The position numbers and the translations under genes were made by a program. From positions 4,682-68,681 of the forward strand of contig CAKOJR010000001.1 in NCBI GenBank assembly GCA_934090735.1: a DNA stretch of 64,000 nt, in the 5' to 3' direction. This stretch comes from an uncultured Bacilli bacterium (GTDB lineage: Bacteria; Bacillota_I; Bacilli_A; RF39; UBA660). Under the pieces are notes generated by a model. The model was given only the letters and a program-made list of their open reading frames with translations, did no database searches and had not been told where the DNA came from. Positions 688 to 64,000 of this stretch are shown in pieces (within the stretch, counting starts at the first letter, position 1; the number at the start of each line of letters is the position of its first letter).

Positions 688-756
688 ATATTATATTTCT
701 TCTTGAATTTTGTATCTTTATATCATATAATTTTAATAGAATATAAGGTGATTATA

Positions 757-2322
757 GTGGAAGATAAAATATTAAATGATAAGAATAAATTAAAAATATT
801 TGCTTCTTTATTAATAGTTGTTTTACTAGTAATGGGAGTAAGTTTTGCTATATTTCAGAATTTTACAAGACAGAGTAGCACTAATAATTTAGGAGCAACT
901 AATTGTTTTAGTATATCTTTTGAGGGTGTTAGTGATGCTCTTAATTTAGAAAATGATTATCCAATTCCGGATAAAGAGGGACTCCAAAGAAATCCTTATA
1001 CATTTAAAGTAACAAATAATTGTGATAGTTATTTATCACTTGTTATTGGAGTAGAAACATTAAGTACAAGTGAAATACCAGCAAGTTTAATTAAAGGAGT
1101 AATTAAAAAAAGTGGTATAAAGCCAACAAGTGCAACTATTTTATCTAGTGGTAATACTATGGAAGCACAAAATGGTGGAGTAGCTTATGAATTGTTAAAG
1201 GATGGAATAGGAGCTAAAAAATCAAAAACTTATGATTTAAGATTATGGTTTGATGAAAGCATGACTAAAGAACAAGGGGCTACTAAGAAATATCAAGGAA
1301 AGGTTATTGTTGGTGCAAGTGCAGATGTAGAACCTCCAAAAAATTTAAGAGAAGCAATACTAGCAAATAATGAAGTTAAGACTCCAATAACTACACCAGG
1401 AGCAGCAATATCTACTGCTGATGAAGCATTACTTGCATCTACAGAAGATGATTATGGAACATCTTATTACTTTAGAGGTGCGGTAACAAATAACTATGTA
1501 GAATTTGCTAATAAGTGCTGGAGAATAGTAAGAGTTGGTGGAGATGGTTCAGTTAAACTTATCTTACATAATGATAATACTAAAAAAGTTGCTAATCCTT
1601 GTGATGCTGCAAATAATAGTATAAGTGCAGCATTTGCAAGATACTCTGGTACAACATTGGCAAGTAAATTTAATACAAACTATGATGATAATGCTTATGT
1701 AGGATTTAAGTATGGAACACCAGGTTCTAGTACATATGAAGCAACACATGCAAACACAAATAATAGTACAATACTAACTAATTTAGAGACATGGTATACA
1801 AATAATTTAAAAGATTATGCTGATACTATAGCTGATACTGAATGGTGCAATGATAAAACAAATGTAACAGATAAAACTTACAATCCAGGGAATGTGAATG
1901 GTGTTAATGGTTATGGATATGCTAAGAATATAACATATTATGGTGCTACACAAAGATTAGTAAGCACAAGTAATAGTGCTGGAGGCACTGGTCCTAGTTT
2001 AAAATGTAATGGAGAATTAAGTAAAATAACATCAAAAGTAGGGCTAATAACAGCAGATGAATTAGCATTTGCTGGATATGCTTTTAATATTAGCAATACA
2101 ACATATTTACAAGAAAATGCTATTAGTACTTATTGGTGGTCTTTGTCTCCTATCTACTTCCATGGCGGCAACGCTTACGTTTGGGGCGTTAGCGGCACCA
2201 GTGGCGACTTATTCTTCAACTACGTGGGCTTCAGCGGCGGCGTTCGCCCGGCCATTTCTCTTATATCTTCGACCAACGTAACTGGCGGTGGAACTAGTGA
2301 TAATCCTTACAAAGTGGTTTGA
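757..2322 (+). CDS. Membrane-anchored surface protein, paralog A of a 4-member family. TasA/camelysin-like N-terminal region, conserved core, C-terminal RPAISL...GTSDNPY module
   Basis: GTG start at 757 preceded by AAGGTG SD. The ORF track's TTG at 703 is less likely. N-terminal TM helix, then N-x-[FI]-x-AT..F and PYTFKVTNNCDSYL resembling the SipW-cognate/TasA region. Core LLASTEDDYGTSYYFRGAVTNNYVEFANKCWRIVR is shared with 17181.., 51649.. and the pseudogene at 59717... Confidence 0.7.
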   Translation: MEDKILNDKNKLKIFASLLIVVLLVMGVSFAIFQNFTRQSSTNNLGATNCFSISFEGVSDALNLENDYPIPDKEGLQRNPYTFKVTNNCDSYLSLVIGVETLSTSEIPASLIKGVIKKSGIKPTSATILSSGNTMEAQNGGVAYELLKDGIGAKKSKTYDLRLWFDESMTKEQGATKKYQGKVIVGASADVEPPKNLREAILANNEVKTPITTPGAAISTADEALLASTEDDYGTSYYFRGAVTNNYVEFANKCWRIVRVGGDGSVKLILHNDNTKKVANPCDAANNSISAAFARYSGTTLASKFNTNYDDNAYVGFKYGTPGSSTYEATHANTNNSTILTNLETWYTNNLKDYADTIADTEWCNDKTNVTDKTYNPGNVNGVNGYGYAKNITYYGATQRLVSTSNSAGGTGPSLKCNGELSKITSKVGLITADELAFAGYAFNISNTTYLQENAISTYWWSLSPIYFHGGNAYVWGVSGTSGDLFFNYVGFSGGVRPAISLISSTNVTGGGTSDNPYKVV

Positions 2323-17180: not shown

Positions 17181-18869
17181 ATGAAGAAAATAATTAGTTT
17201 AATTATTGTATGCACGATAATTATTTCTGGAATGTTTATATATAGAAATGATAATAAAAAGACTTTTACTGATGATAATAGTGCTGAACCAATAATAGCA
17301 GCATTTATTGACGGAGAAGAAAGTACTACATTTCCAACAAATAGTAAATATGTAGCATCTGTTGAATGTACTAAAAATGGTGTTAAGCAAAATGTGGGAG
17401 CTAAAGCTACTTGGAATGGCACTAAATGGGTAGTATCTATTGATGATATAAGTGCTGGAAATGTTAGATGTAGTGCAAACTTTGTAACACCTACTTTAAC
17501 TAATTTGATTTTAGCTGATAATGAAGTTAAGGCACCACTTACTACTCCTGGTCGTGATGTTGCTGCTTATACGTTAGATGATGCTCAAACACATGTGGCA
17601 AGTGTTTCTACTGATGAACAAAATTATTATATTACTTATGCATCATCTTGGACTGTTGGAGATGTTAGGATGGGATTTGATCATACATTTGAATTGGTGA
17701 ATCCTGCCGTTACATATGATACATATGCAAATTCATATTCTAGTTTAGTTGGTAAATATTTACCTTATAGTACTATTAGTTGTAATAATTTAAGTTGTTC
17801 TGGCCAAAAAACAGCTGGAACTAAAAGTAAAACTACGGGATTACAAAGCGTAATATATATTGTAAGCGCTACTTCTGATAGTTTTACATATAAACGTATT
17901 TCATCTACTAAGAATATGTCAGAATCTTTACTTGCAAGTACGGAAGATGATTATGGTACTTCATATTATTATAGAGGAAATGTTAAAGATAATTACGTAC
18001 AATTTGCAAATAAATGCTGGCGAATAGTAAGAATAACAGGCGATGGTTCAGTCAAATTAGTGCTTCATAATGATAATGTTTCTGATGCTACAAACCCTTG
18101 TTCATCTGTTAATAATAATGATACTGCAGCCTTTGCACATTATGATGGTACTTCTTATATTAGTCTTTTTAATTCTAATTATAATGATAATACATATATG
18201 GGATTTATGTATGGTGCAACAGGTGCAAGTGATTATACAAGTACGCATGCAAATACAAATAAAAGCGTAGTACTTACAAATTTAGAAACATGGTATAATA
18301 ATAATTTAGCACCATATGAAAGTAAACTTGCAGATACAATATGGTGTAATGATAAAAAAACATTTAAAACGTATACACAAAAAGGTACGACAACTTATGG
18401 TACTGGATTTGGTTATGGGACTAATGTGACAGGCTATGGTGCATATGACAGAATTTATGGTAGTGATACTCATTCATATGCCAAACCGAGTTTAGTATGC
18501 CCTGATGATAATGATGGTGGAAAGTTATCTAAGTTTACTGTTAATGATACAATTAATGGCAATGGTAAGCTTACATATAAAATTGGGTTGTTAACTGCGG
18601 ATGAAGTTGCTTTTGCTGGGGCTATGTATTCTACAAAAGATAGTTTATTTTATTTAGGTGAAAACGTTGGCGATACAGCATGGTGGACAATGTCACCAGC
18701 GGATTTTACTAGTAATCAAGCATTTATTTTTGAGGTTAAAAAAAATAGTTTGGGTACAGCATTTTCAGCTTATGGGAGTGCAGCGTTGCGACCTGCTATA
18801 TCACTCGTATCTGGTATTGAAGTTACTAGTGGAACAGGTACTAGTGAAGATCCTTATGTTGTAAATTAG
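17181..18869 (+). CDS. Membrane-anchored surface protein, paralog B of the family. Different N-terminal domain, same core and C-terminal module
   Basis: AAGGAAGG SD; N-terminal TM; shares EVKAPLTTPG, LLASTEDDYGTSYYYRGNVKDNYVQFANKCWRIVRITGDGSVKLVLHNDN, GLLTADEVAFAG, WWTMSP and RPAISLVSG..GTSEDPYVVN with paralogs A and C. Confidence 0.7.
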   Translation: MKKIISLIIVCTIIISGMFIYRNDNKKTFTDDNSAEPIIAAFIDGEESTTFPTNSKYVASVECTKNGVKQNVGAKATWNGTKWVVSIDDISAGNVRCSANFVTPTLTNLILADNEVKAPLTTPGRDVAAYTLDDAQTHVASVSTDEQNYYITYASSWTVGDVRMGFDHTFELVNPAVTYDTYANSYSSLVGKYLPYSTISCNNLSCSGQKTAGTKSKTTGLQSVIYIVSATSDSFTYKRISSTKNMSESLLASTEDDYGTSYYYRGNVKDNYVQFANKCWRIVRITGDGSVKLVLHNDNVSDATNPCSSVNNNDTAAFAHYDGTSYISLFNSNYNDNTYMGFMYGATGASDYTSTHANTNKSVVLTNLETWYNNNLAPYESKLADTIWCNDKKTFKTYTQKGTTTYGTGFGYGTNVTGYGAYDRIYGSDTHSYAKPSLVCPDDNDGGKLSKFTVNDTINGNGKLTYKIGLLTADEVAFAGAMYSTKDSLFYLGENVGDTAWWTMSPADFTSNQAFIFEVKKNSLGTAFSAYGSAALRPAISLVSGIEVTSGTGTSEDPYVVN

Positions 18870-47483: not shown

Positions 47484-47484
47484 A

Positions 47485-47572: not shown

Positions 47573-47669
47573 AAATTAATTATACTACAAATTGCTTATA
47601 TTATTCAAGTGCTTTTTTATATGAAAATTACAGATTTTAAAAGTCTGCAAACCAGCATAAATAAAGGGC

Positions 47670-47698
47670 TTGCATGAGTTTTAAGTTTGCGATAATAT
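47670..47698 (+). promoter_or_regulatory. Promoter of toxin mRNA copy 2 (TTGCAT-17-TAATAT)
   Basis: -35 47670-47675, -10 47693-47698. Confidence 0.6.
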
Positions 47699-47760
47699 AC
47701 TTACTTGAAGAGTACTATGTTAGGCTTCTCCTTTCTATAAAAAGAGGGGGAGTGATGTAT

Positions 47761-47850
47761 ATGAAAAAATTAAAGTCTATTTTAGATAATTTAATTATCA
47801 TAATCGTCCTTTTAATTATTTTAAAGGTAATTGTTATTATTTTTAGATAA
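47761..47850 (+). CDS. 29-aa hydrophobic peptide MKKLKSILDNLIIIIVLLIILKVIVIIFR, putative type I toxin (copy 2)
   Basis: Identical to copy 1 except V7I; same SD and UTR complementarity. Confidence 0.6.
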   Translation: MKKLKSILDNLIIIIVLLIILKVIVIIFR

Positions 47851-47851
47851 A

Positions 47852-47938
47852 TAAAAGAAGCTACTAGCATTACCTGTTAAGTAGCTTCAAAACATATACG
47901 TGGAGAAGCCTAACTTTCAGGGGTTAGTGCTCTTCCCT
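47852..47938 (-). ncRNA. Putative cis-antisense antitoxin sRNA (copy 2)
   Basis: Minus-strand TTGTAT-18-TATAAT promoter (rc around 47945-47974) and terminator hairpin plus T-run mirrored from copy 1. Confidence 0.45.
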
Positions 47939-47983
47939 AAATTAATTATACAACATTAAAGCTAATTTATACAAGTTTTTTTC

Positions 47984-48784: not shown

Positions 48785-50011
48785 ATGAATTTATTTGAAG
48801 ATTTAAAATGGAGAGGACTAGTTAAGGATATTAGTAGTCCAGAAATAGAAAAATTATTAAATGGAGAACCAATTAGTTTTTATTGGGGAACTGATCCAAC
48901 TGCAGATAGTTTGCATTTAGGTCATTATTCATCACTAGTAACAGCTAAAAGACTTGCTAAAGCAGGACATCATCCAATACTACTTATTGGTGGAGCTACT
49001 GGACTTATTGGCGATCCTAGACCAACAGCTGAAAGAGAAATTATTAGCAAAGAGACATTAAACAAAAATTTAGAAGGTATTTCTAAACAGGTTAGTGCTT
49101 TATTTGATGGTAAAGCAGAACTTGTTAACAATTATGATTGGTTTAAGGGTTACGAGTTTTTAGATTTTTTAAGAGATGTTGGTAAGTATATTAATGTTAA
49201 CTATATGTTAGATAAAGATATTATTAGAAGAAGATTAGAAACGGGTATTACTTATGCAGAGTTTTCTTATACATTAATTCAAGGTTACGATTTCTTAAGA
49301 TTATTTGAAGATAAGAATTGTGTACTTCAAGCTGAAGGCTCTGATCAATGGGGAAATATTACTACTGGTATCGATTTAATTAGAAAGATTACTGGTAAGG
49401 AAGCTTATGGTTTTACAATGCCACTTGTTCTTGATAAGACTGGTAAGAAGTTTGGTAAGAGTGAAGGCAATGCTTTATGGCTTGATAAGAATAAGACTTC
49501 TAGTTATGAGTTATATCAGTACTTAGTTAATGTTGATGATTCACTTGTTATTGATTATTTAAAGATATTTACTTTCTTAAGTAAAGAAGAAATAGAAGTG
49601 TATGAAAGAAAGAATAATGAGCATCCAGAAGAAAGAGAAGCACATATTGCTTTAGCTAGAGAAATTATTACAGATATTCATGGTAAGGATGAATATTTGA
49701 AAGCTAAAAAGATTAGTGATTGTTTATTTAAGGGTGATATAACTCTTTTAGGTGAAGATGAATTAGAAGATGCCTTTAAAGGTGCTCCTTCATTTGATAT
49801 TACTTTAAATGAGAAGATAATAGATATATTGGTAAACTCTAAAATATGTTCTAGTAAAAGAGAGGCAAGAGAATTCTTAAGTGCTGGAAGTATAATTGTT
49901 AATGGAGAAAAAATCAGTGATGAAAATGAAATAGTTACTGATGATAAGTTATTATTTAATAAATATTTAATTGTACGTAAAGGTAAGAAGAAATACTATA
50001 TAGGTAAGTAA
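48785..50011 (+). CDS. tyrS: Tyrosine--tRNA ligase
   Basis: HLGHY (HIGH) and KFGKS (KMSKS) motifs, C-terminal S4-like domain; 408 aa. Confidence 0.95.
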   Translation: MNLFEDLKWRGLVKDISSPEIEKLLNGEPISFYWGTDPTADSLHLGHYSSLVTAKRLAKAGHHPILLIGGATGLIGDPRPTAEREIISKETLNKNLEGISKQVSALFDGKAELVNNYDWFKGYEFLDFLRDVGKYINVNYMLDKDIIRRRLETGITYAEFSYTLIQGYDFLRLFEDKNCVLQAEGSDQWGNITTGIDLIRKITGKEAYGFTMPLVLDKTGKKFGKSEGNALWLDKNKTSSYELYQYLVNVDDSLVIDYLKIFTFLSKEEIEVYERKNNEHPEEREAHIALAREIITDIHGKDEYLKAKKISDCLFKGDITLLGEDELEDAFKGAPSFDITLNEKIIDILVNSKICSSKREAREFLSAGSIIVNGEKISDENEIVTDDKLLFNKYLIVRKGKKKYYIGK

Positions 50012-50078: not shown

Positions 50079-50315
50079 ATGAGTATGGATGAAATATTAT
50101 TAGATGGTGTGATTGAAGTAAATGGTGAGAAGTTACATGTACTTTTTATGTTTGAAAATAATAATAAAAGATATATTGTATATGTTTTAGAAAATGGTGA
50201 TATTAGTGCTTCAATACTTGGTGATGATATAACATTACTTCCTATAACTACTGATGAAGAATGGGATATGGTTGATGCAGAGTTAGAAAAAAGGGATGAC
50301 ATATGGACAAAATAG
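50079..50315 (+). CDS. DUF1292 family protein
   Basis: IEVNGEKLHVLFMFENNNKRYIVYV...EEWDMV typical DUF1292. Confidence 0.6.
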   Translation: MSMDEILLDGVIEVNGEKLHVLFMFENNNKRYIVYVLENGDISASILGDDITLLPITTDEEWDMVDAELEKRDDIWTK

Positions 50316-51640
50316 TTGTTAGCTGTGAAAAAAATAAATTAACGACTAAATATTACAATAGTTTTGATGATAGTTCTTATAGTAATATCTTTTTTGGTGC
50401 AGAAGCTAAGAGATTTTTAGATGAAATCGAGAAGAGAGATGCTACTGGTGCGAGAATCAGTAAAGATGGTAAAGTGCTTAGAGTTGTTTATCCTGATAGA
50501 GTGATTTTCATTAAAGATTATAAGTTAGTGTTTGAAAATATTGATGCAAGAAGAAATATTGATAGATATAATGCTAATAAAGCTAAAAGGTATATGAATG
50601 GTACTAGGAAAGCTAAGAGAGTATCTAAGACTGGAGCTATTACTAAAGGATTATTAGTTCTTCTTATTATGGTTTCTGTATTAAGTATTAGTCATAAGAT
50701 AAAGAGTTTTGATGATCCGTTTACTCCTAATGCTAGCGCTACTTGGATGGATGATACTAATCAGGAAAGTATTGAAAAATATTTAAATGGTGAGCAGCCG
50801 ATTACGGATGATGATAAAGTAGTTTTAAATACGATAAGTAATACTACTGAGGGAAATGATCCAGGATATGATAAACTTTTATTAGATACACAGATTATAA
50901 GTTTATCTGACGTTGAAGAGGCAGAAAAGACGGAACCAACAAATGGAGAACTTCTTGCTCAAATGGTTGAGGAGAAAGATACTATTTATCATAATTTTAA
51001 TATTGATTTTAGTGATAGAACTAGTGATGAAAAAGCAGCCATAGCTAGAGAAAATTATTATAATTTGATTAGTAGATATGCGAAAACTTATGGGTTAGAT
51101 GCTAATTTAGTAATGGCAATTGCAACGCAAGAAAGAGCAGAACATAGTACGGAGATTGACCCTGGTGGTGGTATTGGTTTAATGCAAATACAGTATAGTG
51201 TTTGGGTTAATCAAGATGTTACAGCGTATAATTTTGAAACAGGTAACTGGGAGACATTTCATATAACTGATAGTAATATTAGAGAGCTTGATACCAATAT
51301 AAAGATTGGGTGTATGTATTTTCAAAATTGTTTAGTTAATATGGATTATAATGTACCAGCTGCATTATGTGCTTATAACTGGGGAACTACTAGTGCTAGA
51401 AATAAGATAAGTCAGTTTTCACAGGATAGAGGGCTTACTGTTAATGAAGTTTTAGAAGCAAATGATACTTCTTGGGTTAATTTGTTTGATGTTGATGGTG
51501 ATACTTCACTAGCTTATCCTAAAGTTGTTCTTTCTTATTATGATAGCAGTAAACCAATTATTAATGATAAAATAGATGAGAATGGTAATGATATTGTGGT
51601 AAGTACTACAGTAAGTAGTCCATTGATTAAAAATAAGTAG
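50303..51640 (+). CDS. Membrane-anchored lytic transglycosylase (SLT domain)
   Basis: TM anchor, then IATQERAEHS...GGGIGLMQIQ (catalytic Glu-Ser plus GLMQ SLT motif). Overlaps the DUF1292 gene by 13 nt. Confidence 0.7.
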   Translation: MDKIVVSCEKNKLTTKYYNSFDDSSYSNIFFGAEAKRFLDEIEKRDATGARISKDGKVLRVVYPDRVIFIKDYKLVFENIDARRNIDRYNANKAKRYMNGTRKAKRVSKTGAITKGLLVLLIMVSVLSISHKIKSFDDPFTPNASATWMDDTNQESIEKYLNGEQPITDDDKVVLNTISNTTEGNDPGYDKLLLDTQIISLSDVEEAEKTEPTNGELLAQMVEEKDTIYHNFNIDFSDRTSDEKAAIARENYYNLISRYAKTYGLDANLVMAIATQERAEHSTEIDPGGGIGLMQIQYSVWVNQDVTAYNFETGNWETFHITDSNIRELDTNIKIGCMYFQNCLVNMDYNVPAALCAYNWGTTSARNKISQFSQDRGLTVNEVLEANDTSWVNLFDVDGDTSLAYPKVVLSYYDSSKPIINDKIDENGNDIVVSTTVSSPLIKNK

Positions 51641-51648
51641 GTGATTAC

Positions 51649-53538
51649 ATGAAAGATAAAAAGAAAGTAAAAATTTATTATGGGTTACTAATAACTTTAA
51701 TTATTTTTGCAGGTGTAAGTTACGCTTGGTTTAGACTTACTAAAACTCAGGAAAATAAGAATGTTATTGGAACAAGGTCTTGCTTAGATGCAACGCTTAC
51801 TGAGGAAACTTCAAACATAGTTTTGGATGATGCTTTTCCAATAAGTGATGAAGATGGTATGAAGCAAACTCCTTTTACTTTTACTTTAAAAAATAATTGT
51901 GAAGGATATGTTAAAGTTTATATTACTATTGATAGTAAGTATAGAGAAAGTGCTAGTACTGATTATTTAAAAGATGATTATGTAAAAGCTAATTTGTCTA
52001 CCAAGGGAACTACTACGGGACAATCTACTTTATTAGCTAATAATCAGTTAATAGATTTAGAAAATAATAATAAAGGATATATTCTTGTATCAACTGGATT
52101 AAAAGCTAATGAAGAAAAGAGTTATGACTTAAGAGTATGGGTAGATAGTGAAACTACACTAGAGCAAGGATTAAATAAAAGCTGGGAAGGAAAGATAGTT
52201 GTTGTAGGCGAGGCTTCTGAAGTAGAAACTTTAAATGGTGCTATACTTGCTAGAAATGATGTGAAAGAGCCACTTACTGTGCCAGCTCAGGAAACAAGTG
52301 GCTATACTAAAGATGATATAACGAAAACCTTAACTATGAATATATCTCAAACATATCAAGGATATTATTTTACATATGGTACTGGATATGAAGCTAATGA
52401 AACTAATTTTAATTTAACTGGTGCTTCAGTAACAACTGAAACCTATGCTAATTCATATTCGAATTTAGTTGGCAAATATCTGCCTGCTGTATATGCTAAT
52501 TTTGTTAATTATAGTAATTTTTCATCAGCCACAGCGGGAACGATGAAAACAACTACTAATTTAGGAAGTGTGTATTATATTGTTAGTGCCAGCTTAAATA
52601 GTTTGACTTATAAAGAGATTTTATCAAATAAAAATCAAACAGAAGCACTTTTAGCTAGTACAGAAGATGATTATGGAATAAGTTATTATTTTAGAGGAGC
52701 TGTAAGAAATAATTATGTACAGTTTGCAAATAAATGCTGGAGGATAGTAAGAATCACTGGTGATGGAAGCGTAAAATTAATATTACATAATGATAATATT
52801 AATAATTCATCTACTCCGTGTTCATCAACGAATAATAGTGATACAGCAGCATTTGCTAGGTATTCTGATGATTTATATACTAACTCATTTAATCCGAGTT
52901 CTAATGATAATGCTTATATGGGATTTATGTATGGAACAACGGGTACAAGTAATTACGCGAGTACTCATGCCAATATTAATAAAAGCACAACTCTTGTAAA
53001 TTTAGAAGCTTGGTATGAGAAAAATAACTTAGATATGTATGTAGATAAACTAGCAGATACAATATGGTGTAATGATAAGAGTGTAGTTGATGGCGGATTA
53101 GGATATGGTTCTCAAGGTACAAATTATGGTGCACATAATAGAGTTACTAGTAGTGGAACTCCTTCATTAATATGTCCGAATGATAAAAATAATGGAAAGT
53201 TGTCTAAGTTTACTGTTAATGACGAAATTAATGGAAATGGTGCATTAACATATAAAATCGGATTATTAACTGCTGATGAAGCTGCATTTGCTGGTTTATC
53301 TGTTAATCTTCCAAATTATTCTATGTATTTATCTGAGAATGCTGAAGATATAGATTGGTGGACGTTATCTCCTAATAGTTCACAAAATAATTTATTTTTT
53401 TGGGTAGTAGAATCTAGTGCTTTACAGAGTGATCTTATCAAGAAAAATTTAGGTTTAAGACCTGCAATTGCTTTAAAATCTAATGTTGAAATTTCTGGTG
53501 GAAAAGGTACTAGTGAAGATCCTTATGTTGTTAATTGA
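51649..53538 (+). CDS. Surface protein paralog C: TasA/camelysin-like N-terminal region with SipW-cognate-type signal, conserved core, C-terminal RPAIALKS..GTSEDPYVVN module
   Basis: SYAWFRLTKTQENKNVIGT resembles the SipW-cognate signal motif; PFTFTLKNNCEGYVKVYITID TasA-like; shares the core and C-module with 757.. and 17181... Confidence 0.7.
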   Translation: MKDKKKVKIYYGLLITLIIFAGVSYAWFRLTKTQENKNVIGTRSCLDATLTEETSNIVLDDAFPISDEDGMKQTPFTFTLKNNCEGYVKVYITIDSKYRESASTDYLKDDYVKANLSTKGTTTGQSTLLANNQLIDLENNNKGYILVSTGLKANEEKSYDLRVWVDSETTLEQGLNKSWEGKIVVVGEASEVETLNGAILARNDVKEPLTVPAQETSGYTKDDITKTLTMNISQTYQGYYFTYGTGYEANETNFNLTGASVTTETYANSYSNLVGKYLPAVYANFVNYSNFSSATAGTMKTTTNLGSVYYIVSASLNSLTYKEILSNKNQTEALLASTEDDYGISYYFRGAVRNNYVQFANKCWRIVRITGDGSVKLILHNDNINNSSTPCSSTNNSDTAAFARYSDDLYTNSFNPSSNDNAYMGFMYGTTGTSNYASTHANINKSTTLVNLEAWYEKNNLDMYVDKLADTIWCNDKSVVDGGLGYGSQGTNYGAHNRVTSSGTPSLICPNDKNNGKLSKFTVNDEINGNGALTYKIGLLTADEAAFAGLSVNLPNYSMYLSENAEDIDWWTLSPNSSQNNLFFWVVESSALQSDLIKKNLGLRPAIALKSNVEISGGKGTSEDPYVVN

Positions 53539-53619
53539 TAGGTTTAGGCCTATCTTTTAGTTTGGGCTTTTTTTTCTTTCTAGATAATGTTATAATTTAA
53601 AGAGAATAGGGCTGGTGTT

Positions 53620-54522
53620 ATGAAGAATAAGAGTGGGTTTATTGCTACTAGTTTAATATATACTTTTTTTCTTGCTTTTATTGCTATATTAACTGCTCTT
53701 TTAAGTAATTATATTGCTAATAAGACGATACTTGATAGGTATAATAGTGATATTCAAAATAAACTTAATAATGGTAATGGTAGTGTTAGTTTATATGTAT
53801 CTTATGCTAGTATAGATGATGGTAAGACGATTACTAATTTAGTTCGTAATGGTAATTTTAGTGATGGTTTAAATGAGTGGAATATTCATGGTGGCGGTAA
53901 TTTTTTAGCTGCTAATTTTATTAAGCCTTGTATAATTAAGAATGGTTATAGTGGTTATTTATCTCAACCGATTAATGTTGTTCCTGATCATAAATATTAT
54001 TTAAGAATGGAGTATCATCAAGTTGGTAATAATAATGGGGATGTGTTTGTTTCAAGTGCTGTAGATAATAGTGATGTAGGTATAAATAAGGTTATTAGTA
54101 GTTCTATTAGTGGTGATGGTTGGAAAAGTATTTCAGAGATAGTAGAGTTAACTGGTAGTGAATTACTTAGAAGTATGATTGTTGGTAAACAAAGTTATGG
54201 TAGTTCTAGTACTTATTATACTAATTTACTTTTAATGGATATTACATATGCTTTTAATGATAGTGTTAGTAAAGATTGGCTTGATAATAATATAGGTTAT
54301 TTTGATGGAACGGTTTCTTTTTTAAAAAAGGATTTTGCAGATGATGACGAAATTACTTTTACATTAGTTCCTTACTCTGGTTATAAAATTAATACTATTA
54401 ATTGTGATTATGATAATTATGAAAGAACACCTACTACGGATGAAGTTGATACTAAATATTTATTTAAGTTTAAAAATAATAGTCATGATAATAGGTGTAA
54501 TATTACTTTTAAGCATGAATAG
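53620..54522 (+). CDS. Pseudopilin-like membrane-anchored protein with CBM4/9-like beta-sandwich domain
   Basis: N-terminus KSGFIATSLIY (pilin-like hydrophobic segment but no Glu+5). NGNFSDGLNEWNIHGGGN...DHKYYLRMEY...GWKSISEIVEL matches the CBM_4_9 pattern. Confidence 0.5.
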   Translation: MKNKSGFIATSLIYTFFLAFIAILTALLSNYIANKTILDRYNSDIQNKLNNGNGSVSLYVSYASIDDGKTITNLVRNGNFSDGLNEWNIHGGGNFLAANFIKPCIIKNGYSGYLSQPINVVPDHKYYLRMEYHQVGNNNGDVFVSSAVDNSDVGINKVISSSISGDGWKSISEIVELTGSELLRSMIVGKQSYGSSSTYYTNLLLMDITYAFNDSVSKDWLDNNIGYFDGTVSFLKKDFADDDEITFTLVPYSGYKINTINCDYDNYERTPTTDEVDTKYLFKFKNNSHDNRCNITFKHE

Positions 54523-55590: not shown

Positions 55591-58500
55591 ATGAAAAGTA
55601 ATAAGGGTTTTACAATGGTAGAACTTCTTGCTGTTATTACAATTTTATCTGTTATTATGATTATTTTAATACCGGCTGTTGATAATATATCTAAAAGTAC
55701 TAAGGAGAGTATATTAAGTTCAAAAATTAATACTATAGAAACAAGTGCTTCAAAGTTTGGTGAGGATAATATTAATAATTATCAAAAGTGTACTAATGCT
55801 TTAGAGGGCGGGGCAATTGGTGGATATGTTTATACAGGTTGTTTGATTAGTGTTACTGATTTGGTTAGATTAGGTTATTTGGAGTTTGATACAACTAAAA
55901 ATGGTGCTAACTTTATTAGTAATCCAGTTACTGGTGGAAGTATAGATGGTAATATATTACTTTGTTATGATCCTCATACAATAACAGTTAATGCAACTTT
56001 TTATAATAATGGTGATGTAAATTATTCGTGTCCAGCAGTTAGTGATAGTGGTAATTATTCACTTAATTTAGGAGCTACCAGAAAAGATTTTTATTGGGGT
56101 ACTCATGAAGTATTTAAAACTAAAATATATACTAAAGGTGATTTTAAGAATATAACTTGTAGTGTTGATGGACCATTTAGCTGCTCTATTTCTGGTGATG
56201 ATTTAACCATTACTTTAAATGATAGTGGTACTGGAGCTAATGGTAGTTATCAAGTACAAGTAACGGCTACTTATAATGAAAATAGTGAAGATAAGAATCT
56301 TTATAGAAGAATGAATTTAGGTGTGTATGTTGTTAATTTTGATATAGATGATTATACACCGGGAATGTGTATGAAGACTTTTAGTAATGAGGTATTTAGA
56401 ATTACTGGTGAAAATTATGGTAAGTTTTCTTTGGAAGATGTTAGCGATGGATTAAATGCTACTATTAAAGATGATGTTCTTTATATGAATAGTGGTTCTG
56501 TTACTGGCGAGCAAAGTTTCCTTATTAAAGAAGATCATGCTGGTTTAACTAAACAAATTTTAAGAGAAGTTTATAATTTAAGTGTAGAAACGCAAATTAC
56601 GAATGTTATTGTTGGAGAAGCTGCTACTAAGGTAGAACTTAAGGCAGATGGTGCTGGTGATTTAAAGATTACGACTGATAGTGCAGCTGCTAGTTTATCT
56701 TCAAATAATAGTTCTTTTTCAAGTACAATAACTTTAAGAGGTCAAAATTATTTCTATATAAGAGGAAATAGTATTGGAACGGTTAATATTACGATAAAAG
56801 GCTCTTTATGTGGTGAAACTAGTTTTAGTGTAAATGTATCTAATATAAAACTTGATAACCAGGATATTCCTAAGTATTTATATTTTAACGGAGGCACAAG
56901 ACGAAATAATGATAAGACTCAGTTTAAGTCTAAAATAGTTGGTAGTACAGTTAATGATTTTTCATGTACTGTTTATAAGAAGAATGGTAGTAATTATGTT
57001 CAAAATGATGAATATTTAACGTGCTATATCGAAAATGATACTCTTACTATAGAAACAACTTCTGGTAATAATATTTTTAGTAATGTTACGGATTTAAAGG
57101 TTAATGTAAAGAGTGAAACAAATGGTTCTTTAGATATTTATATACCAATTATATATAGAACTAGTATATCTTTTAAAAAGAATGGTAGTAAAGTATCTAG
57201 AGTTTGTAAAGAACTTAATTCAAGTGCTGGGCTAAGTGATGAAACTATTTTGATTTATGGAAATAATTTAGGAGTTCTTAGTAGTGATGGCACTAGTTGT
57301 AATAGTAATACTACTAATATTGTTTTCGATAGTATGATAGATTATTATTTAGTAGATGTAGGTGATCCAATAAATCCAACTATTTCAATTACGAATAATT
57401 GTGCTAGCGTTTCCGATAGCTATGGAAAGATGGTTTTATCAAGACATAATGTTACTAGTTCTCAGTATAATAGTACACTTCCATATAAGCTTGGAAGAAC
57501 TAATACTGGTAGAGAGATTGTCTATATCAGAGAAAATAATGGTAATAGATTAGGTGCTCTTTATTATCACATTTATTCTTTAAATAGTAGCTCTAATTCT
57601 GTTACTTTAGGTGTTGGAAAGCAAAGTGCACAGATAAGAATTAGTTATGCTGCAACTGGTAGTGTTAGTTATAGGATTGCAAATAAAGATGTTGCCAGGG
57701 TTAATGTTATAAGTAGTGATACATTTTCTTATGATGATAATATTAATAAGACTTTTACTGATATAATTACAATAACAGCACTTAGAACGGGCACAACATA
57801 TTTAACTATAAGTGGAAAAGAATGTGGGACGTTTACAATTCCAATTTATGTTACAAATGTTTTTGCAATAAATTTAGATGGTGGCATATATGGAACTGTT
57901 AGTCAGTCATCTTTAACTTGTACTGAATCTAGACTTAATTCTGGGTGCTCTGTAACTTTACCTGACTTTACTGTACCTAGTGGAATTACGAAAAAAGGTT
58001 GGAGTACTAATCCAAATGGTGGTAATGTCTTAAGTGTTGGTAGTAGTGTTATGATTAATAATAATACTAAAGGAACTACTTATTATGCAATAGCAGATAA
58101 TCCAAGACCTAGTTGTTTATTTACAAATGTTCCTAGTGATATTTATGGTAAAGATAAAGTTTATATAAATTGTACTGATGTTGGTGGAGGCCTTTCTAGT
58201 GATACGATAAGTACTAGTAGTATAAGTGCTAGTAATGAAGTTATAGTAGAAAGTGTTAGTAAGGTTAGTAATATAACTAATGGATATAAGTTTGAAGTTA
58301 CAGTAAATCCAAATAATTATTATGGACCATTTACTCTTACATTAAATGAAGGAGCTGTTAGTGATGTATATGGATTTTCTAATAAAAAGGTTGTAACTAG
58401 TGAGATTATTAGTGCAGAACATGAATATGTAAGTTTTTATGAAATCGGTAAGGACAATAAAGAAGATTTAATTGCTTTCTTATATGATAATAAGGATATT

Positions 58501-59625
58501 GATGGAAGTGATGGTTATACACTTAAGGTATATGGTTCCGGTGACATGGAAGATTTTACTAAAGCACCATGGGATGGTTATGCAGAATCAATTAATAATA
58601 TTGTTTTAAGTAGTGAGTTAACTAGTATTGGTAACAATGCTTTTTATGGAACTAATATAAGTAATATTAATATACCTAATAGTGTTAGTAGTATAGGAGC
58701 ATCGGCATTTGAAAGTACTAGCTTAAAGATACTTAATGTTAATAGTGAAACTATTGGTAAGAGAGCATTTGCTAATAATTTAGAACTTACTAGTTTGACT
58801 ATTGGAGGTAATGTTAGAACTATAGAACAGTATGCTTTTAGTACAAATACTAATTTAAGTGATATAACCTTTAAAGAAGGCGTAGAGTATATTCGTGATT
58901 ATGTATTTATTGATAGTAAACTTGGCAATTTAGTTATGCCAAATAGTTTACAAACTATTGGGGATTATGCTTTTTATAATTTTAAAGGAGAAAGTGTTGA
59001 TATTAGGAATGCTTATGTAGGACTTGCATCATTTAGGGGAACTAATTTTAAAGAGATAAAAGCAAGCACTTTAGAGGTAAAGGATAACATTTTATATAAT
59101 GGAGATATTCTTATACTAGTTCCGGATAAGCTTGAGGGTAATGTTAAAATTATAGAAGGAACAAGTACAATAACTTATGAAGCATTAAAAGGCTTTGTAA
59201 GTGCTGATGAGAAAATGATGAGTTTAACTATTCCTAGTTCAGTTACAGAAATAAATTCAGTAATTAATTTAAATATAAAAGAGTTTATAGTAAGTGATGA
59301 TAATGATAGATATATGAGTGATAATGGAGTTCTTTATGATAAATACAGTGATGCTTTAGTAAGTATACCTAGTTATTATCAGGAGTCTAGTTATACCATA
59401 AATTCAAAAAGAATTAATAGTTATTCAATAATGAATAATATAATTCTTAAGACTATTACTCTTGGTGATACAGTTGAAACTATTGAAAATAATGCTGTTT
59501 ATGGTAGAGGAGATTTAGGAATAAGACAGGTTATTAATTATTCAAATGTTTCATATAGCAATGCTCATTATGATTTAGATTATTCTATATCTTTTATGGA
59601 TAAAGTTAATGATGTTCAAAATTAA
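55591..59625 (+). CDS. Giant pilin-adhesin fusion: prepilin N-terminus, Ig-like repeats, BspA-type leucine-rich repeats (1344 aa)
   Basis: MKSNKG|FTMVELLAVITIL prepilin motif; Big_2-like segments; C-terminal LRR_5/BspA repeats (IPNSVSSIGASAFES..., IGKRAFANNLELTSLTIG..., MPNSLQTIGDYAFYNF). Confidence 0.7.
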   Translation: MKSNKGFTMVELLAVITILSVIMIILIPAVDNISKSTKESILSSKINTIETSASKFGEDNINNYQKCTNALEGGAIGGYVYTGCLISVTDLVRLGYLEFDTTKNGANFISNPVTGGSIDGNILLCYDPHTITVNATFYNNGDVNYSCPAVSDSGNYSLNLGATRKDFYWGTHEVFKTKIYTKGDFKNITCSVDGPFSCSISGDDLTITLNDSGTGANGSYQVQVTATYNENSEDKNLYRRMNLGVYVVNFDIDDYTPGMCMKTFSNEVFRITGENYGKFSLEDVSDGLNATIKDDVLYMNSGSVTGEQSFLIKEDHAGLTKQILREVYNLSVETQITNVIVGEAATKVELKADGAGDLKITTDSAAASLSSNNSSFSSTITLRGQNYFYIRGNSIGTVNITIKGSLCGETSFSVNVSNIKLDNQDIPKYLYFNGGTRRNNDKTQFKSKIVGSTVNDFSCTVYKKNGSNYVQNDEYLTCYIENDTLTIETTSGNNIFSNVTDLKVNVKSETNGSLDIYIPIIYRTSISFKKNGSKVSRVCKELNSSAGLSDETILIYGNNLGVLSSDGTSCNSNTTNIVFDSMIDYYLVDVGDPINPTISITNNCASVSDSYGKMVLSRHNVTSSQYNSTLPYKLGRTNTGREIVYIRENNGNRLGALYYHIYSLNSSSNSVTLGVGKQSAQIRISYAATGSVSYRIANKDVARVNVISSDTFSYDDNINKTFTDIITITALRTGTTYLTISGKECGTFTIPIYVTNVFAINLDGGIYGTVSQSSLTCTESRLNSGCSVTLPDFTVPSGITKKGWSTNPNGGNVLSVGSSVMINNNTKGTTYYAIADNPRPSCLFTNVPSDIYGKDKVYINCTDVGGGLSSDTISTSSISASNEVIVESVSKVSNITNGYKFEVTVNPNNYYGPFTLTLNEGAVSDVYGFSNKKVVTSEIISAEHEYVSFYEIGKDNKEDLIAFLYDNKDIDGSDGYTLKVYGSGDMEDFTKAPWDGYAESINNIVLSSELTSIGNNAFYGTNISNINIPNSVSSIGASAFESTSLKILNVNSETIGKRAFANNLELTSLTIGGNVRTIEQYAFSTNTNLSDITFKEGVEYIRDYVFIDSKLGNLVMPNSLQTIGDYAFYNFKGESVDIRNAYVGLASFRGTNFKEIKASTLEVKDNILYNGDILILVPDKLEGNVKIIEGTSTITYEALKGFVSADEKMMSLTIPSSVTEINSVINLNIKEFIVSDDNDRYMSDNGVLYDKYSDALVSIPSYYQESSYTINSKRINSYSIMNNIILKTITLGDTVETIENNAVYGRGDLGIRQVINYSNVSYSNAHYDLDYSISFMDKVNDVQN

Positions 59626-59716
59626 AACTTTGGACATTTTTATTTATAAAAATAGTAGTTAGTGCCTTGATTAAAAGGTAATTATCATATATAATTATTT
59701 ATAGTAGGTGAGGTTC

Positions 59717-60990
59717 GTGGATTTTATAGAAAGGGAGAAGAAGAAAAGAACTATTTTGTATGGCTTATTATAGATTAACTAAAACACAGACAAATAAGAA
59801 TATTATTGCAACTAGAACTTGTTTAGATACTAGTTTAACTTAAGAAACTAGTGAAATAGTATTAGCTGAAGCTTTTCCAATAAGTGATGAAGATGGACTT
59901 AAACAGACCCATTTACTTTTACTTTAAAGAATAATTGTGATAGTTATGTTAAAGTAAATATAATGTTAGTAAGTGATTATAGAACAAGTGATGATACAGC
60001 TTATTTAAAAGATGATTATGTTAAGACTAATTTTTCTTTTAAGGGAACTACTGATGGAGAAATGGATATTTTAAGCTCATTTCCTTTGGGAGAAGCGGAT
60101 GTTAATACTGAAGGTTATATTCTTAAGAGTATGGGTTTAACGAGTAACGAAGAAAAGAGTTTTGATTTAAGATTGTGGGTTGATTCAGAAACTACTATAG
60201 AGCAAGGTTTAAATAAGATGTGGAGTGCTAAGGTTGTTGTTACAGCAATGGCTGCAGAGGAACCTCCTGCTGCACCTAAGGGGTGGTATGAAGCTAATAT
60301 AGGAACTTTTCTGGCAGCATTAAGGGAAAATGTTTCTTTAAGTAAAGTAGCTACTGTTCCTGGTAGTGAGGTTAGTGGCTATACGCACAACGATGTTGAT
60401 AGTTCGACAGCAAGTGTTAGTACGACGTATCAAAAATATTACTTTACTTATGGAACTGGTTTTGAAGCAAATGGTACTAAGTTTAATTTGACTTATTATG
60501 AAGATATGCTGGCTGATACAATATGGTGTAATGATAAAAGTACTTCTAGTGGATTAGGATATGGAACTAGTACTACTAATTATAGTGTTTATGGAAGATT
60601 AGTTACTTTTAAGAAACCAACATTAATATGTTCTAAAGATAATAGTGGCGAAAGTTATCTAAATTTACTGTAGATGATACAAGTTATGGTAATGGTAATT
60701 TAACTTATAAGGTTGGATTACTAACTGCAGATGAGGTAGTATTTGTTGGTTCTGTGTATGGTGTATATAACCGCTCTACATATTTGTATGAAAATGGTAC
60801 ATCGGTTTGGTGGACAATGTCACCTAAGGGTTATGATGCTAGTTATACAGAAGTTTGACGAGTTAGATCTGGTTATCTAAATGGAGATAGTGTTACGTCA
60901 TCTTATGCACTTCGTCCATCTATTGCTTTAGTTTCTACAGTTACAATTACTGGAGAAGGTACTAGTGAAAACCCTTATATAGTAAAGTAG
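59717..60990 (+). pseudogene. Decayed paralog D of the surface-protein family
   Basis: Homologous to the 51649.. gene. It has lost the about 10-codon TM segment with a frameshift, carries an in-frame TAA in the TasA-like region, a 1-nt deletion, a roughly 200-aa internal deletion removing the conserved core, and a further frameshift plus TGA before the RPSIALVS..GTSENPYIVK tail. Confidence 0.7.
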
Positions 60991-60996
60991 GTGTTT

Positions 60997-61566
60997 ATGA
61001 AGAAAAAATATGTTTATTTAATTGGTGTATTTATTATAGTATGCGTTATTATTCTTATTATTTGTTTTAGTAAGAAGGATAGTATCAGGCTTTATGATAA
61101 GTATAGTGCTAGAATAGGTATTAATTACAATGATAATAGTTATTCTAGAAGTTTTGATTATGATGGAGTAACTGGTAGAATAATATATGAAGATAAGACT
61201 GTCTATATGGATAGCAAAGGAGTATATTACAGTTTAGATAATGATTATTATAAGTATGAAACTGATATTAATTATACTTCACTTAGTGATGTGATTAGTA
61301 AATTTAAAATTTTAGAAAAAAACAATGAAGAGTATAGATGTGAAGTTAGTTCTGAATTTTTAGATAGTTTATTTATTAAAGGGACACCAAGTGATTGTTA
61401 TTTAAGTATAGATGGTGGATATGTAAAGGGGGTGAGTGTTAACTTCGATAAAGGAAATGTGTATATTTCTTTTAAGAAGTTAGGTGATGATTTTAGTGTT
61501 AGCATGCTTGGTTATTTTGATGAAAAATCTAAGATTGTGCATGATAATATATTGGAAATTAAATAG
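60997..61566 (+). CDS. Bitopic membrane protein (possible PilN/PilO-like pilus assembly component)
   Basis: Short cytoplasmic Lys-rich N-terminus, one TM helix, about 160-aa extracytoplasmic domain; located between pilin genes. Function is speculative. Confidence 0.4.
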   Translation: MKKKYVYLIGVFIIVCVIILIICFSKKDSIRLYDKYSARIGINYNDNSYSRSFDYDGVTGRIIYEDKTVYMDSKGVYYSLDNDYYKYETDINYTSLSDVISKFKILEKNNEEYRCEVSSEFLDSLFIKGTPSDCYLSIDGGYVKGVSVNFDKGNVYISFKKLGDDFSVSMLGYFDEKSKIVHDNILEIK

Positions 61567-61574: not shown

Positions 61575-63338
61575 ATGAAGAATAAGAAAGGATTTACTTT
61601 AGTAGAAATTATTGCTGTTATTGCACTAATTGCAGTTATTGTTGGTATTTTTATTGTTAATTTAGTTGGTAAAAATGATCCTAAAGAAAATAATAAAGAT
61701 ACAGTTAAACAAATCTTAAGTGCTGCAGATGCTTATGTTAGTGCTAATAAGAGTGAAATTGAAAAGTTGTATGAGGGGTATAATTTTGTTGATATAACAA
61801 TTGGCGACTTAAAAAATAATGGTTTACTTAGTGAAGATATTATTAATAAGGAAACTAATGAAAAATATAAAGATGATGTAGTGGTTCGTGTTACTTTAAA
61901 TGATGCAACAAAAGCAACTGAGTTTGAACTTGATCCAGAAGATAAGGATACAGATAATACTTATCTTGTAGCTGATACTATTTATTTGGAGTATGATGCT
62001 AGTGGAACTAATTGGTGTAATGGGGAAAATGAATTTAAGGGATTAAATAATGCTGATTCAAATTATGGTAAGTTAGTTCTTACATCTTTAGATGAACCAA
62101 GTAGAAGTATAGATTTATTTAAAGATGATACTATTAAGGTAAAGTCTTGTAATGTTGATGTTACAAAGGCTGGTACTTATAGTGTAGTGTATACTTATAC
62201 TTATAATGGAGTTAATGTTGATAAAACAAGAACTGTATATGTAGCTGCTAGTGCTACTGATGTAGATAGTTTTACTGCTAATTTGAAATTAAATGGTGTT
62301 GTGACTAATAAAATTAATTTAGGTGCTACAGATGTTAATATTTTTATAACACTTCGTTATAAGAATGGTACTTCAAAAGAAATTGATAAACCAATAAATG
62401 AAATAACTGATTTTACTATTAAAGGATTTTCTACTGAACCTGTTGGAAATAAAACAGCAATAGTTAGTTATAATAAAACTAATAGTGATGGTTCTGTTCC
62501 TAGTCCAGTTAATTTAGATTATATGGTAAGTGATGAGCTTGTTGATTTTATTGGAAGTGATTGTGTTTTAGAGCCTGGTAAGACAGATGAATGTTATTAT
62601 AGAGGCGAAGTTGAAACTAACTATTTAAAATATGAAAATAGTTCATATATGTTTAGAATTTATTATAGAAATGGCAATGGTATTAAAGTTATTGCTAATG
62701 ATCCATATAGTTATACATGGAATGGAAAAACTAGCAGTGATTTAGTATATGGCATGATTGGTGCTTGTAAGTATAGTGGATGTTGTAATGGTGGAAGATA
62801 TTATTATCAAGGATTAGGTGGAACAAATTATGGGTCATCATTTAACTATCCTACAATGAGTAATATTGTTAATCATTTCTATACTTCTATTGTTAATGGT
62901 AGTCCTAAATATGTAGATAATCAATATATTACTGGTGCTGGACTTGGTGGTGGAGCATTCTATACTAAAGTAGCTCTTATGAGTAAAAATGATTATACTA
63001 AAGTAGCTAATTGTAATGGTAATAATTGTTTTAGAAGTTATTTAACTAATAATAGTAATGCTGGTAAAGATTTCTGGTTAGTAGAAACAGTTTCATTTAC
63101 GATGGATACTTCTAACTTTAACTATGGTAGAAGTGAAGCACATGTTTATAACAATTATGTTGATGCTAGTACATTTGTTGTTGACAAAGGTGGTTCTTAT
63201 AAAGGATATACTGATAATGATTATTATACTACTAATGTAACATATGCTACTAATAAGGTAAGACCAACATTACAACTTAAGAATGCTAAAATAGTTAGTG
63301 GAAATGGAACAAAAGCAAATCCATTTATTGTAAGGTAG
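61575..63338 (+). CDS. Large type IV pilin-like protein (587 aa) carrying the C-terminal module shared with the surface paralogs
   Basis: MKNKKG|FTLVEIIAVIALIAV prepilin motif. C-terminus VRPTLQLKNAKIVSGNGTKANPFIVR parallels RPAISL...G.GTSEDPYVV. Confidence 0.65.
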   Translation: MKNKKGFTLVEIIAVIALIAVIVGIFIVNLVGKNDPKENNKDTVKQILSAADAYVSANKSEIEKLYEGYNFVDITIGDLKNNGLLSEDIINKETNEKYKDDVVVRVTLNDATKATEFELDPEDKDTDNTYLVADTIYLEYDASGTNWCNGENEFKGLNNADSNYGKLVLTSLDEPSRSIDLFKDDTIKVKSCNVDVTKAGTYSVVYTYTYNGVNVDKTRTVYVAASATDVDSFTANLKLNGVVTNKINLGATDVNIFITLRYKNGTSKEIDKPINEITDFTIKGFSTEPVGNKTAIVSYNKTNSDGSVPSPVNLDYMVSDELVDFIGSDCVLEPGKTDECYYRGEVETNYLKYENSSYMFRIYYRNGNGIKVIANDPYSYTWNGKTSSDLVYGMIGACKYSGCCNGGRYYYQGLGGTNYGSSFNYPTMSNIVNHFYTSIVNGSPKYVDNQYITGAGLGGGAFYTKVALMSKNDYTKVANCNGNNCFRSYLTNNSNAGKDFWLVETVSFTMDTSNFNYGRSEAHVYNNYVDASTFVVDKGGSYKGYTDNDYYTTNVTYATNKVRPTLQLKNAKIVSGNGTKANPFIVR

Positions 63339-63346: not shown

Positions 63347-64000
63347 ATGGAGAATAAAAAGAATTATGTTTTAATTGGTGTACTTATTGTTGTTATTGTA
63401 GGTGCATTATTAATCAAGTATTTTAGTGATAGGAAAACTAATAATGTTCTTAACGGTGATACAATTATAGGAAGTAGTTTAAATACTAAAGAACAAGCTA
63501 ATGTAGATTCTTATTTGAAAGATGAGCTTGTTAAAAATAAGTATACACTAGACAGAGCAAAAGTTTATGTAGATCCTTATAAAGTTAGTCCACTTAGTGC
63601 TATTATTATATTTTATACTGATAATAGTATGGAAGTTAGTGTAACAGTTAAGGGTAAGAATAATGATGATTTTACAGTAAATTATGGAAAAAGTAATTAC
63701 CATTATATACCAGTGTATGGATTATATGCTGATTATGATAATAAAGTTGTTGTAACTTTAGGAGATAAAACTACTAAAGAATTTACTATTAAAACTGATA
63801 AGATTAATGTTCCAGCTATAAAAGCTGAAAGCGGAAATGTAACTGCATCTGGGGACTTTTATTTGCTTACTAGCCCAATAGGTATGTGTTCCATTGGAGT
63901 TGATGGATATGGTAATCTTAGATGGATGTTAGGTGATTATTATTATCATAATATTAAAGTATTAGATAATGGTCATTTACTAATAGGTATTGATACTGAT
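63347..64000 (+). CDS. Bitopic membrane protein, 3' truncated by window end
   Basis: MENKKNYVLIGVLIVVIVGALLI TM anchor; ORF open to the end of the window. Confidence 0.45.
   Translation, partial: MENKKNYVLIGVLIVVIVGALLIKYFSDRKTNNVLNGDTIIGSSLNTKEQANVDSYLKDELVKNKYTLDRAKVYVDPYKVSPLSAIIIFYTDNSMEVSVTVKGKNNDDFTVNYGKSNYHYIPVYGLYADYDNKVVVTLGDKTTKEFTIKTDKINVPAIKAESGNVTASGDFYLLTSPIGMCSIGVDGYGNLRWMLGDYYYHNIKVLDNGHLLIGIDTD

Follow-up and report, generated by a model that had tools for sequence, protein, structure and literature searches.

The stretch of DNA analysed here, referred to as the window, comprises 64,000 nucleotides (nt) from an uncultured Bacilli bacterium (GTDB lineage Bacteria; Bacillota_I; Bacilli_A; RF39; UBA660; assembly GCA_934090735.1, contig CAKOJR010000001.1, positions 4,682 to 68,681 of the forward strand) and has a G+C content of 25-37%. 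Near its end lies a gene for a pilin-like protein of 587 amino acids (aa), hereafter the target, whose C-terminal domain was found to be related to that of a family of paralogous proteins encoded in the same window. The gene belongs to a locus in which the following are encoded in order: an SLT-domain transglycosylase, paralog 3, a ComGG-like protein of 300 aa, two small pilins (169 and 178 aa), a leucine-rich repeat (LRR) pilin, a paralog pseudogene, a 191-aa protein, the target and an arylsulfotransferase-family (ASST) enzyme. The coordinates of these features are given in Table 1.

Table 1. Coordinates of the target gene, its predicted parts and the neighbouring or related genes, in nucleotides of the window.
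Feature	Position	Strand	Basis
Target gene, putative modular type IV pilin-like protein, 587 aa	61575..63338	+	Open reading frame (ORF)
Prepilin (class III) signal, with MKNKKG as leader followed by FTLVE (Glu at +5) and a hydrophobic helix	61575..61649	+	
Pilin module, aa 1 to ~125: N-terminal helices and small beta head	61575..61949	+	AlphaFold2, conservation
Two immunoglobulin (Ig)-like beta-sandwich domains, aa ~129-320, predicted stalk	61959..62534	+	Sub-threshold Pfam, AlphaFold2, Foldseek
C-terminal DUF6273-like module, aa ~330-587, with conserved Cys cluster	62562..63335	+	hhalign, profile search
Last 26 residues of the target (VRPTLQLKNAKIVSGNGTKANPFIVR), final beta-strands of the module	63258..63335	+	Sequence, AlphaFold2
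Paralog 1, 539 aa, C-terminal domain aa ~245-539	703..2322	+	A3 profile, E 4.4e-128
Paralog 2, 562 aa, C-terminal domain aa ~252-562	17181..18869	+	A3 profile, E 4.5e-154
Paralog 3, 629 aa: signal/anchor, beta-sandwich N-terminal domains, DUF6273 domain aa ~336-629 (nt 52654-53535)	51649..53538	+	PF19789
Paralog-family pseudogene, ending RPSIALVSTVTITGEGTSENPYIVK	~59688-60990	+	Three-frame translation, DNA repeats D4-D9
SLT-domain lytic transglycosylase, head of the locus	50303..51640	+	PF01464, E 1.4e-10
Genes for four other pilin-like proteins, of 300 (with a ComGG-like N-terminus), 169, 178 and 1344 aa	53620..59625	+	PF07963/TIGR02532, weak ComG-type matches
Membrane-anchored protein, 191 aa, one N-terminal transmembrane segment, 8 nt upstream of the target	60991..61566	+	
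Start of ASST-family gene, 9 nt past the target stop, cut by the window end	63348..64000	+	Sequence

Prepilin N-terminus and domain architecture of the target

The target carries a canonical prepilin (class III) N-terminus, in agreement with an earlier note on this DNA that had described a 587-residue protein with a textbook prepilin start. The N-terminus, MKNKKGFTLVEIIAVIALIAV (in a longer stretch, MKNKKGFTLVEIIAVIALIAVIVGIF), has the features of a class III signal, namely a leader ending in Gly, about 20 hydrophobic residues and Glu at +5, and the cleavage pattern was read as MKNKKG followed by FTLVEIIAVIALIAVIVGIFIV. The N_methyl family PF07963 matched aa 1-25 at 27 bits (cut-off 21.2) and TIGR02532 matched at 22.9 bits (cut-off 16.3). 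Fifty-one homologues of the target were found, of which the full-length ones are 568-654 aa long and come from metagenome-assembled genomes (MAGs) of uncultured gut Bacilli/'Tenericutes'; MAGs of uncultured gut 'Bacilli' and 'Tenericutes' are also the genomes closest to the one studied here. Residues G6, F7, T8, L9, V10 and E11 were invariant across 18 homologues.

The target was divided into four parts from the AlphaFold2 model and the conservation profile. The model places helices at aa 9-24 and 36-66 followed by strands at aa 71-138, with a predicted local distance difference test score (pLDDT) below 50 for aa 1-39 and of 54-74 up to aa 130. The region of aa ~129-320 was mostly all-beta, with pLDDT values of 10-residue blocks mostly between 82 and 96; PF16403/PF07523 matched aa 183-223 below threshold, and Foldseek matched the region to tandem Ig, cadherin and S-layer domains. 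In the C-terminal module most 10-residue blocks had a pLDDT above 85, with lower values (55-75) at aa ~391-420, 511-520 and 541-560. Strands were modelled at aa 564-569, 572-575 and 584-586 at the very end of the protein, where the block-mean pLDDT was 89-94 over aa 561-587.

A cysteine cluster specific to the target family (C330, C398, C403, C404 and C485, with C403 and C404 adjacent) lies in the C-terminal module, and the consensus around it, YGQxGxCxxxSCCNGGRYxY, had no counterpart in the alignment of the paralog domain. The conserved cysteines may form disulfides or bind metal. Identity among close orthologues was highest in the pilin module (93%), lower in the Ig-like region (80%) and lowest in the distal module (73%), which is the gradient that would be expected if the distal module were exposed and ligand-facing.

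A C-terminal domain shared with the paralogs

All five parallel C-terminal strings quoted in the earlier note were present in the window; their owners are the three intact paralogs, the target and the reading frame ending at 60990, which belongs to the pseudogene. The last 26 residues of the target thus resemble the C-termini of three intact paralogs and of one frameshifted pseudogene. Pairwise BLASTP between the target and the paralogs gave weak matches (25 bits, E 0.004-0.009) in two collinear islands, one formed by the C-terminal 25 residues of the target and the other lying about 220 residues upstream (target aa 341-376, YYRGEVETNYLKY..FRIYYRNGNGIKVI versus YYFRGAVRNNYVQFANKCWRIVRITGDGSVKLI). 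Both islands were also detectable in the DNA, as repeat families D8 and D10 with 62-74% identity.

Profile comparison extended the similarity over the whole distance between the islands. Two alignments of C-terminal regions, A2 with 14 sequences from the target family and A3 with 9 from the paralog family, matched each other in hhalign with a probability of 97.3% and E 2e-11. With a permissive threshold the path covered 202 columns, from aa ~341-586 of the target and aa ~346-628 of the paralog, at about 20% identity. Four blocks were aligned along this path: YY.G...NYv.F...[FW]RI...G.s[IV]K[IL]I, K[VI][AG]L[LM][ST]..[DE], YL..N...[FW]W and [VL]RP[TA][LI].L....[IV]..G.GT..[DN]P[FY][IV]V.

The specificity of these profiles was apparent in the window, whose six frames supplied a search space of 235 translated stretches, each free of stops and 50 aa or longer. 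The hidden Markov model (HMM) built from A2 matched the three paralogs (E 6e-5, 1.3e-4 and 0.013; Z = 1e6) and nothing else. HMMs built from the last 30 and the last 60 paralog columns matched the target at E 3.7e-5 and 1.6e-7, respectively, and the next best stretches had E 0.5-2. The earlier note had allowed that the likeness might come down to a few low-complexity residues with no significant HMM score; the scores obtained with these terminal profiles were significant.

A chance resemblance between Gly/Thr/Asn-rich, low-complexity sequences of an AT-rich genome is extremely improbable as an explanation, given the hhalign E value, the confinement of the A2 matches to the three paralogs and the library search described below, which linked hundreds of DUF6273-type proteins to the target family at E<=1e-8. 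Set against homology are the weakness of the BLASTP matches, the failure of Pfam to recognise the target and the absence of the target from the matches listed for the reverse (A3, paralog-domain) HMM in the window search. As judged from the profiles, the common unit is a folded domain of about 250-290 residues, larger than a tail of 26-60 residues, and the C-termini are similar because this DUF6273-like domain ends the target, the three intact paralogs and the pseudogene. The common module of the earlier note, shared between a prepilin protein and non-pilin paralogs, was thereby retained, but its extent had been understated, since it takes in the whole domain and not the tail.

The terminal motif

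The position of the terminal motif was surveyed in 147 newly returned representatives of the A2 search, a copy being counted as internal when more than 30 residues from the end. The string RP..[IL].L...G.G[TS]..P[YF] was internal in 88 of the 147 relatives and occurred in more than one copy in 67. Two very long relatives consist in part of tandem copies of the domain, at least 11 in P0173 (4905 aa) and at least seven in P0183 (3528 aa), and each copy ends RPVINLK...G.G[TS]..NPY. The motif is internal and tandemly repeated and therefore marks the end of a domain, not a sorting signal; in the model, the string 'RP..L...G.GT..NPY.V' is the final pair of beta-strands of the domain.

The earlier note had also raised a shared interaction or processing motif. 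On that explanation the common C-terminus would be a short autonomous signal for sorting, processing, donor-strand exchange or docking, used by common machinery and acquired independently by proteins with different export routes. The string does stand at the extreme C-terminus of every one of the five window copies, identity among close orthologues is higher in the last 26 residues than in the whole domain (85% versus 73%), and the Pfam DUF6273 model, which matches up to aa 611 of 629, leaves out the 18 residues that come after 'RPAIALKS'; these points speak for a signal and against a domain end. The collinear similarity, however, reaches about 220 residues further upstream, the motif is internal or repeated in the relatives as described (at least 11 times in P0173), no hydrophobic or charged tail follows it, and it was modelled as confident strands packed within the domain. 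A C-terminal motif for sorting, processing or docking that the proteins have in common was accordingly judged very unlikely, and this part of the earlier note was set aside. The higher conservation of the motif would suit an element of the structural core. An LPXTG-like sorting signal was considered separately and rejected; the window proteins end two to three residues after the motif, with no hydrophobic segment or charged tail, and the motif's internal position in most relatives does not suit such a signal.

Relationship of the module to DUF6273

The library searches placed the shared domain in the DUF6273 superfamily. PF19789 (DUF6273; gathering score 23.5 bits) matched paralog 3 at 25.6 bits and paralog 2 at 18.4 bits, the latter under the cut-off, and paralog 1 had no Pfam match by itself. 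PF19789 gave no match on the target or on 14 members of its family, even at E<=1-10, and the C-terminal half of the target matched nothing from Pfam, NCBIfam or PHROGs. The PHROGs scan returned only phrog_9958 (unknown function) for the paralog and, for the target, two weak matches at the N-terminus (E 0.002-0.007), both to families of unknown function.

The connection to DUF6273 was made through intermediates. Searching the A2 profile against 1.84 billion cluster representatives retrieved 833 proteins at E<=1e-3 and 63 at E<=1e-10. Among 48 retrieved proteins that were sampled, PF19789 was recognised in 21 (best E 2.3e-12) and the prepilin motif in 12, and the PF19789 matches fall within the region matched by A2. 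The C-terminal domain of the target is, by this chain of profile matches, a divergent member of the DUF6273 superfamily. Sequence searches of solved structures with either domain profile gave no meaningful match, and the AlphaFold2 model of paralog 3 was of low quality in the C-terminal domain, where aa 394-580 had a pLDDT below 50.

The DUF6273-type domain has been described in the literature as C-type-lectin-like. In Faecalibacterium prophages it serves as a target domain of diversity-generating retroelements (DGRs), the variable region lying at its C-terminus (PMC11792537), it is present in the 'tentaclins' of phages and in further target proteins of DGRs (PMC10743442, PMC11792537), and it forms the N-terminal domain in the immunoglobulin A protease ThomasA (PMC12402451). 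PF19789 proteins and the target module are alike in the collinear blocks Y..F..W/FRI...G..K.I (the N-terminal hairpin), K[VI]aLL...E, YL...[FW]W and RP.[IL].L. Tentaclins and the target both have the domain at the distal end of an Ig-like stalk, and DUF6273 domains are frequent in gut Firmicutes and their phages, a setting like that of the target's host. The target differs from PF19789 in falling below Pfam detection, in its Cys-rich insertion (YGxxGxCxxxxCCNGGRYxY) and in an 18-residue extension (G.GT..NP[FY].V) past the end of the Pfam model.

Unlike the PF19789 proteins that are diversified by DGRs, the target has no DGR (reverse transcriptase or template repeat) that could be seen in the window. 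The possibility that it is a DGR variable protein was rejected; the C-terminal regions contain no near-identical template/variable repeat pair, only paralog similarity of 62-82%. No reverse transcriptase was recognised by inspection of the window ORF translations, which were not scanned against family libraries.

The paralog family

Paralog 3 has more than 6000 homologues and is followed by a terminator-like hairpin at 53537-53554. The pseudogene is not an intact gene, being spread across three frames with stops and an internal deletion; at its position the related loci L001 and L002 have an intact orthologue of 527-530 aa, preceded by an inserted Schlafen/AlbA_2-type gene. All three intact paralogs adjoin or lie near aminoacyl-tRNA synthetase genes, as judged from the translations: ileS (2575-5328) beside paralog 1, leuS (14698-17097) beside paralog 2 and tyrS (48785-50011) near paralog 3. 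This neighbourhood may be a coincidence.

The earlier note had assigned the paralogs to the SipW/TasA type. Two of the three intact paralogs have GVSYAWF or GVSFAIF after a hydrophobic stretch, which resembles the signal region of TasA and camelysin (motif G-T-[YFW]-A-x-F), and paralog 2 is without the motif. A hydrophobic N-terminus with a beta-sandwich domain after it is likewise common to the paralogs and the TasA type. Neither Peptidase_M73 (PF12389) nor TIGR04088, the SipW-cognate signal, matched any of the three window paralogs, and hhalign of the paralogs against relatives with an M73 N-terminus gave probabilities of 11-20%. Foldseek of the model of the paralog N-terminal domain (block pLDDT mostly 72-87) against PDB yielded nothing that reached E<=1e-3, and TasA was absent from the 50 matches listed, of which the best were Pgp3 and chaperone-usher subunits; CanA was matched at E 0.027. 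In two relatives, P0301 and P0256, the shared C-terminal module is paired with a bona fide Peptidase_M73 N-terminus, and the P0301 module matched the paralog domain with an hhalign probability of 100% and 42% identity. From these comparisons, the SipW/TasA label is plausible for the wider family and weakly supported for the window paralogs.

Domain shuffling and age of the fusion

The domain shuffling suggested by the earlier note was borne out by the variety of proteins that contain the module. At least four kinds of N-terminus precede the DUF6273-like module in public data. Among the 147 relatives, 29 have a prepilin N-terminus (GFTLVE), 37 an xYAxF signal-like N-terminus and 15 a YGYRLVYYY-type anchor, and ComGG-like GFIAxSLIY N-termini were found before the module in P0269 and P0310. 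These last two proteins, from other organisms, have the same N-terminus as the 300-aa protein of the window, but a DUF6273-like domain replaces its C-terminal region. A family of about 430-460 aa (P0207, P0208, P0213, P0218 and others) has the N-terminal anchor (F)YGYRLVYYY(K/R)(I/L)EHPK followed directly by a DUF6273 domain. The carrier, too, was found with other payloads, as distant relatives of the pilin and Ig-like part of the target have Listeria-Bacteroides repeats (Flg_new; P0043-45, P0048) or a VWA domain (P0047). Shuffling has gone both ways, the module moving among carriers and the carrier among payloads. The DUF6273-type domain, otherwise mainly discussed as a phage receptor-binding or DGR-target domain, is accordingly a widely shuffled module in gut Firmicutes.

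The fusion of pilin and module in the target appears to be old rather than recent, because the module is only about 20% identical to the paralog domain, distant orthologues are already fused and no recent gene conversion is visible. Recent conversion between paralog and pilin genes was looked for and rejected; DNA similarity was confined to the two short islands D8 and D10, and the fused form is already present in orthologues of 36-39% identity.

The locus and a proposed role for the target

The neighbours of the target include pilin-like proteins of several kinds. The N-terminus of the 300-aa protein (53620-54522), MKNKSGFIATSLIYTFFLAF, is pilin-like and of the ComGG type, without Glu5. The 1344-aa protein (55591-59625) is a second giant modular pilin, with a prepilin N-terminus and BspA-type LRRs (PF13306 LRR_5, E 1.3e-48), and it is kept at about 1400 aa in the loci L071 and L072. 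The 191-aa protein had no family match in the library scans; at its position, each of the orthologous loci (L001, L002, L071 and L072) has a counterpart, of 192-227 aa.

The pilin locus is conserved in these same four loci. In L071 and L072, where the target orthologue is 36-39% identical, the core order of LRR pilin, small membrane protein, target and ASST gene is kept, and in L071 a paralog-type protein again precedes the pilin genes. An ASST gene directly follows the DUF6273-like pilin in every locus examined, and the orthologous ASST genes carry PF05935 and PF17425 (L002 11728-13605, L022 10570-12483, L071 11809-13689 and L072 10807-12687). The pilin of L022 (719 aa) has an fn3/Ig middle unlike that of the target, with the same kind of C-terminal domain and the ASST gene next to it.

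The target is probably a modular minor type IV pilin that consists of a pilin module, two Ig-like domains and a distal DUF6273-like binding module. A prepilin peptidase encoded elsewhere would cleave it after Gly6, and the mature protein would enter a type IV filament of the neighbouring small pilins as a minor subunit, probably at or near the tip because of its bulk. The Ig-like stalk would hold the DUF6273-like module off the cell, where it would bind a glycan or protein ligand in the gut, and the paralogs would display the related binding module from an N-terminal signal or anchor instead.

Precedents for such a protein have been shown experimentally in Streptococcus sanguinis, where PilB joins a pilin to a vWA module and PilC joins a pilin to a concanavalin-A-like lectin, and proteins built in this way have been reported as widespread, InterPro containing 264 architectures (PMC8179133, PMC9934059). 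The target is a modular pilin in the sense of PMC8179133, having a pilin module and a module that also occurs in non-pilus proteins. PilB, PilC and the target are alike in a class III signal and pilin module bearing a bulky C-terminal binding module that is not specific to pili and also occurs in non-pilin proteins, in a gene placed among minor pilins in a monoderm, and in a predicted adhesion role at the filament tip. The target differs in having a DUF6273-like domain instead of a vWA or ConA-like one, in the two Ig-like domains between pilin and module, in the lack of assembly genes nearby and in being known from sequence alone.

An unlikely, though not negligible, alternative is that the target has a prepilin signal without being a filament subunit and stays anchored in the membrane or on a short pseudopilus as a binding or enzyme-associated protein that works with the ASST-family enzyme, comparable to the binding proteins with class III signals of the archaeal 'bindosome'. 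Several properties of the locus point in this direction and away from a filament. No prepilin peptidase, assembly ATPase or platform protein was evident among the window ORF translations (not all of which were scanned against family libraries), and no pilus assembly genes were present in the 10 kb downstream of the locus in L002. The coupling to ASST is tight and conserved, even in L022 with its different pilin middle, and a conserved small membrane protein is encoded just upstream of the target. Against anchoring alone stand the four other pilin-like genes beside the target, which include ComGD/E/F/G-like minor pilins, and the match between its architecture and the experimentally shown modular pilins (PMC8179133).

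The gene order also admits a broader reading, which we consider unlikely, in which the conserved locus encodes a single surface apparatus specific to uncultured gut Bacilli with small genomes (former 'Tenericutes'). It would comprise a type IV filament bearing two different giant adhesin pilins, with a function tied to an extracellular ASST-family enzyme, and the abundant non-pilin DUF6273 paralogs would be partners or cargo rather than independent adhesins. The order of its components on that reading is DUF6273 surface protein, ComGG-like protein, two small pilins, LRR pilin of about 1400 aa, small membrane protein, DUF6273-like pilin and ASST-family enzyme.

As a modular minor pilin, the target would add a new module to the catalogue of modular type IV pilins, with no new mechanism revealed. 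A census of the InterPro kind, such as that of PMC8179133, would probably miss this architecture because the target module is invisible to Pfam. The proteins that bear the module are candidate adhesins, binding host or glycan ligands, of a lineage about which little is known; the literature searched yielded no account of the surface structures of these uncultured gut Bacilli.

Other features of the window

Two observations concern regions of the window away from the pilin genes. A T-box leader (RF00230, 97 bits) was detected at 2371-2572, upstream of ileS. A tandem duplication of about 366 bp with 85-97% identity lies at 47292-47955, and downstream of it the segment 48090-48155 shares 73% identity with the 3' end of the T-box region of ileS, below the Rfam gathering score.

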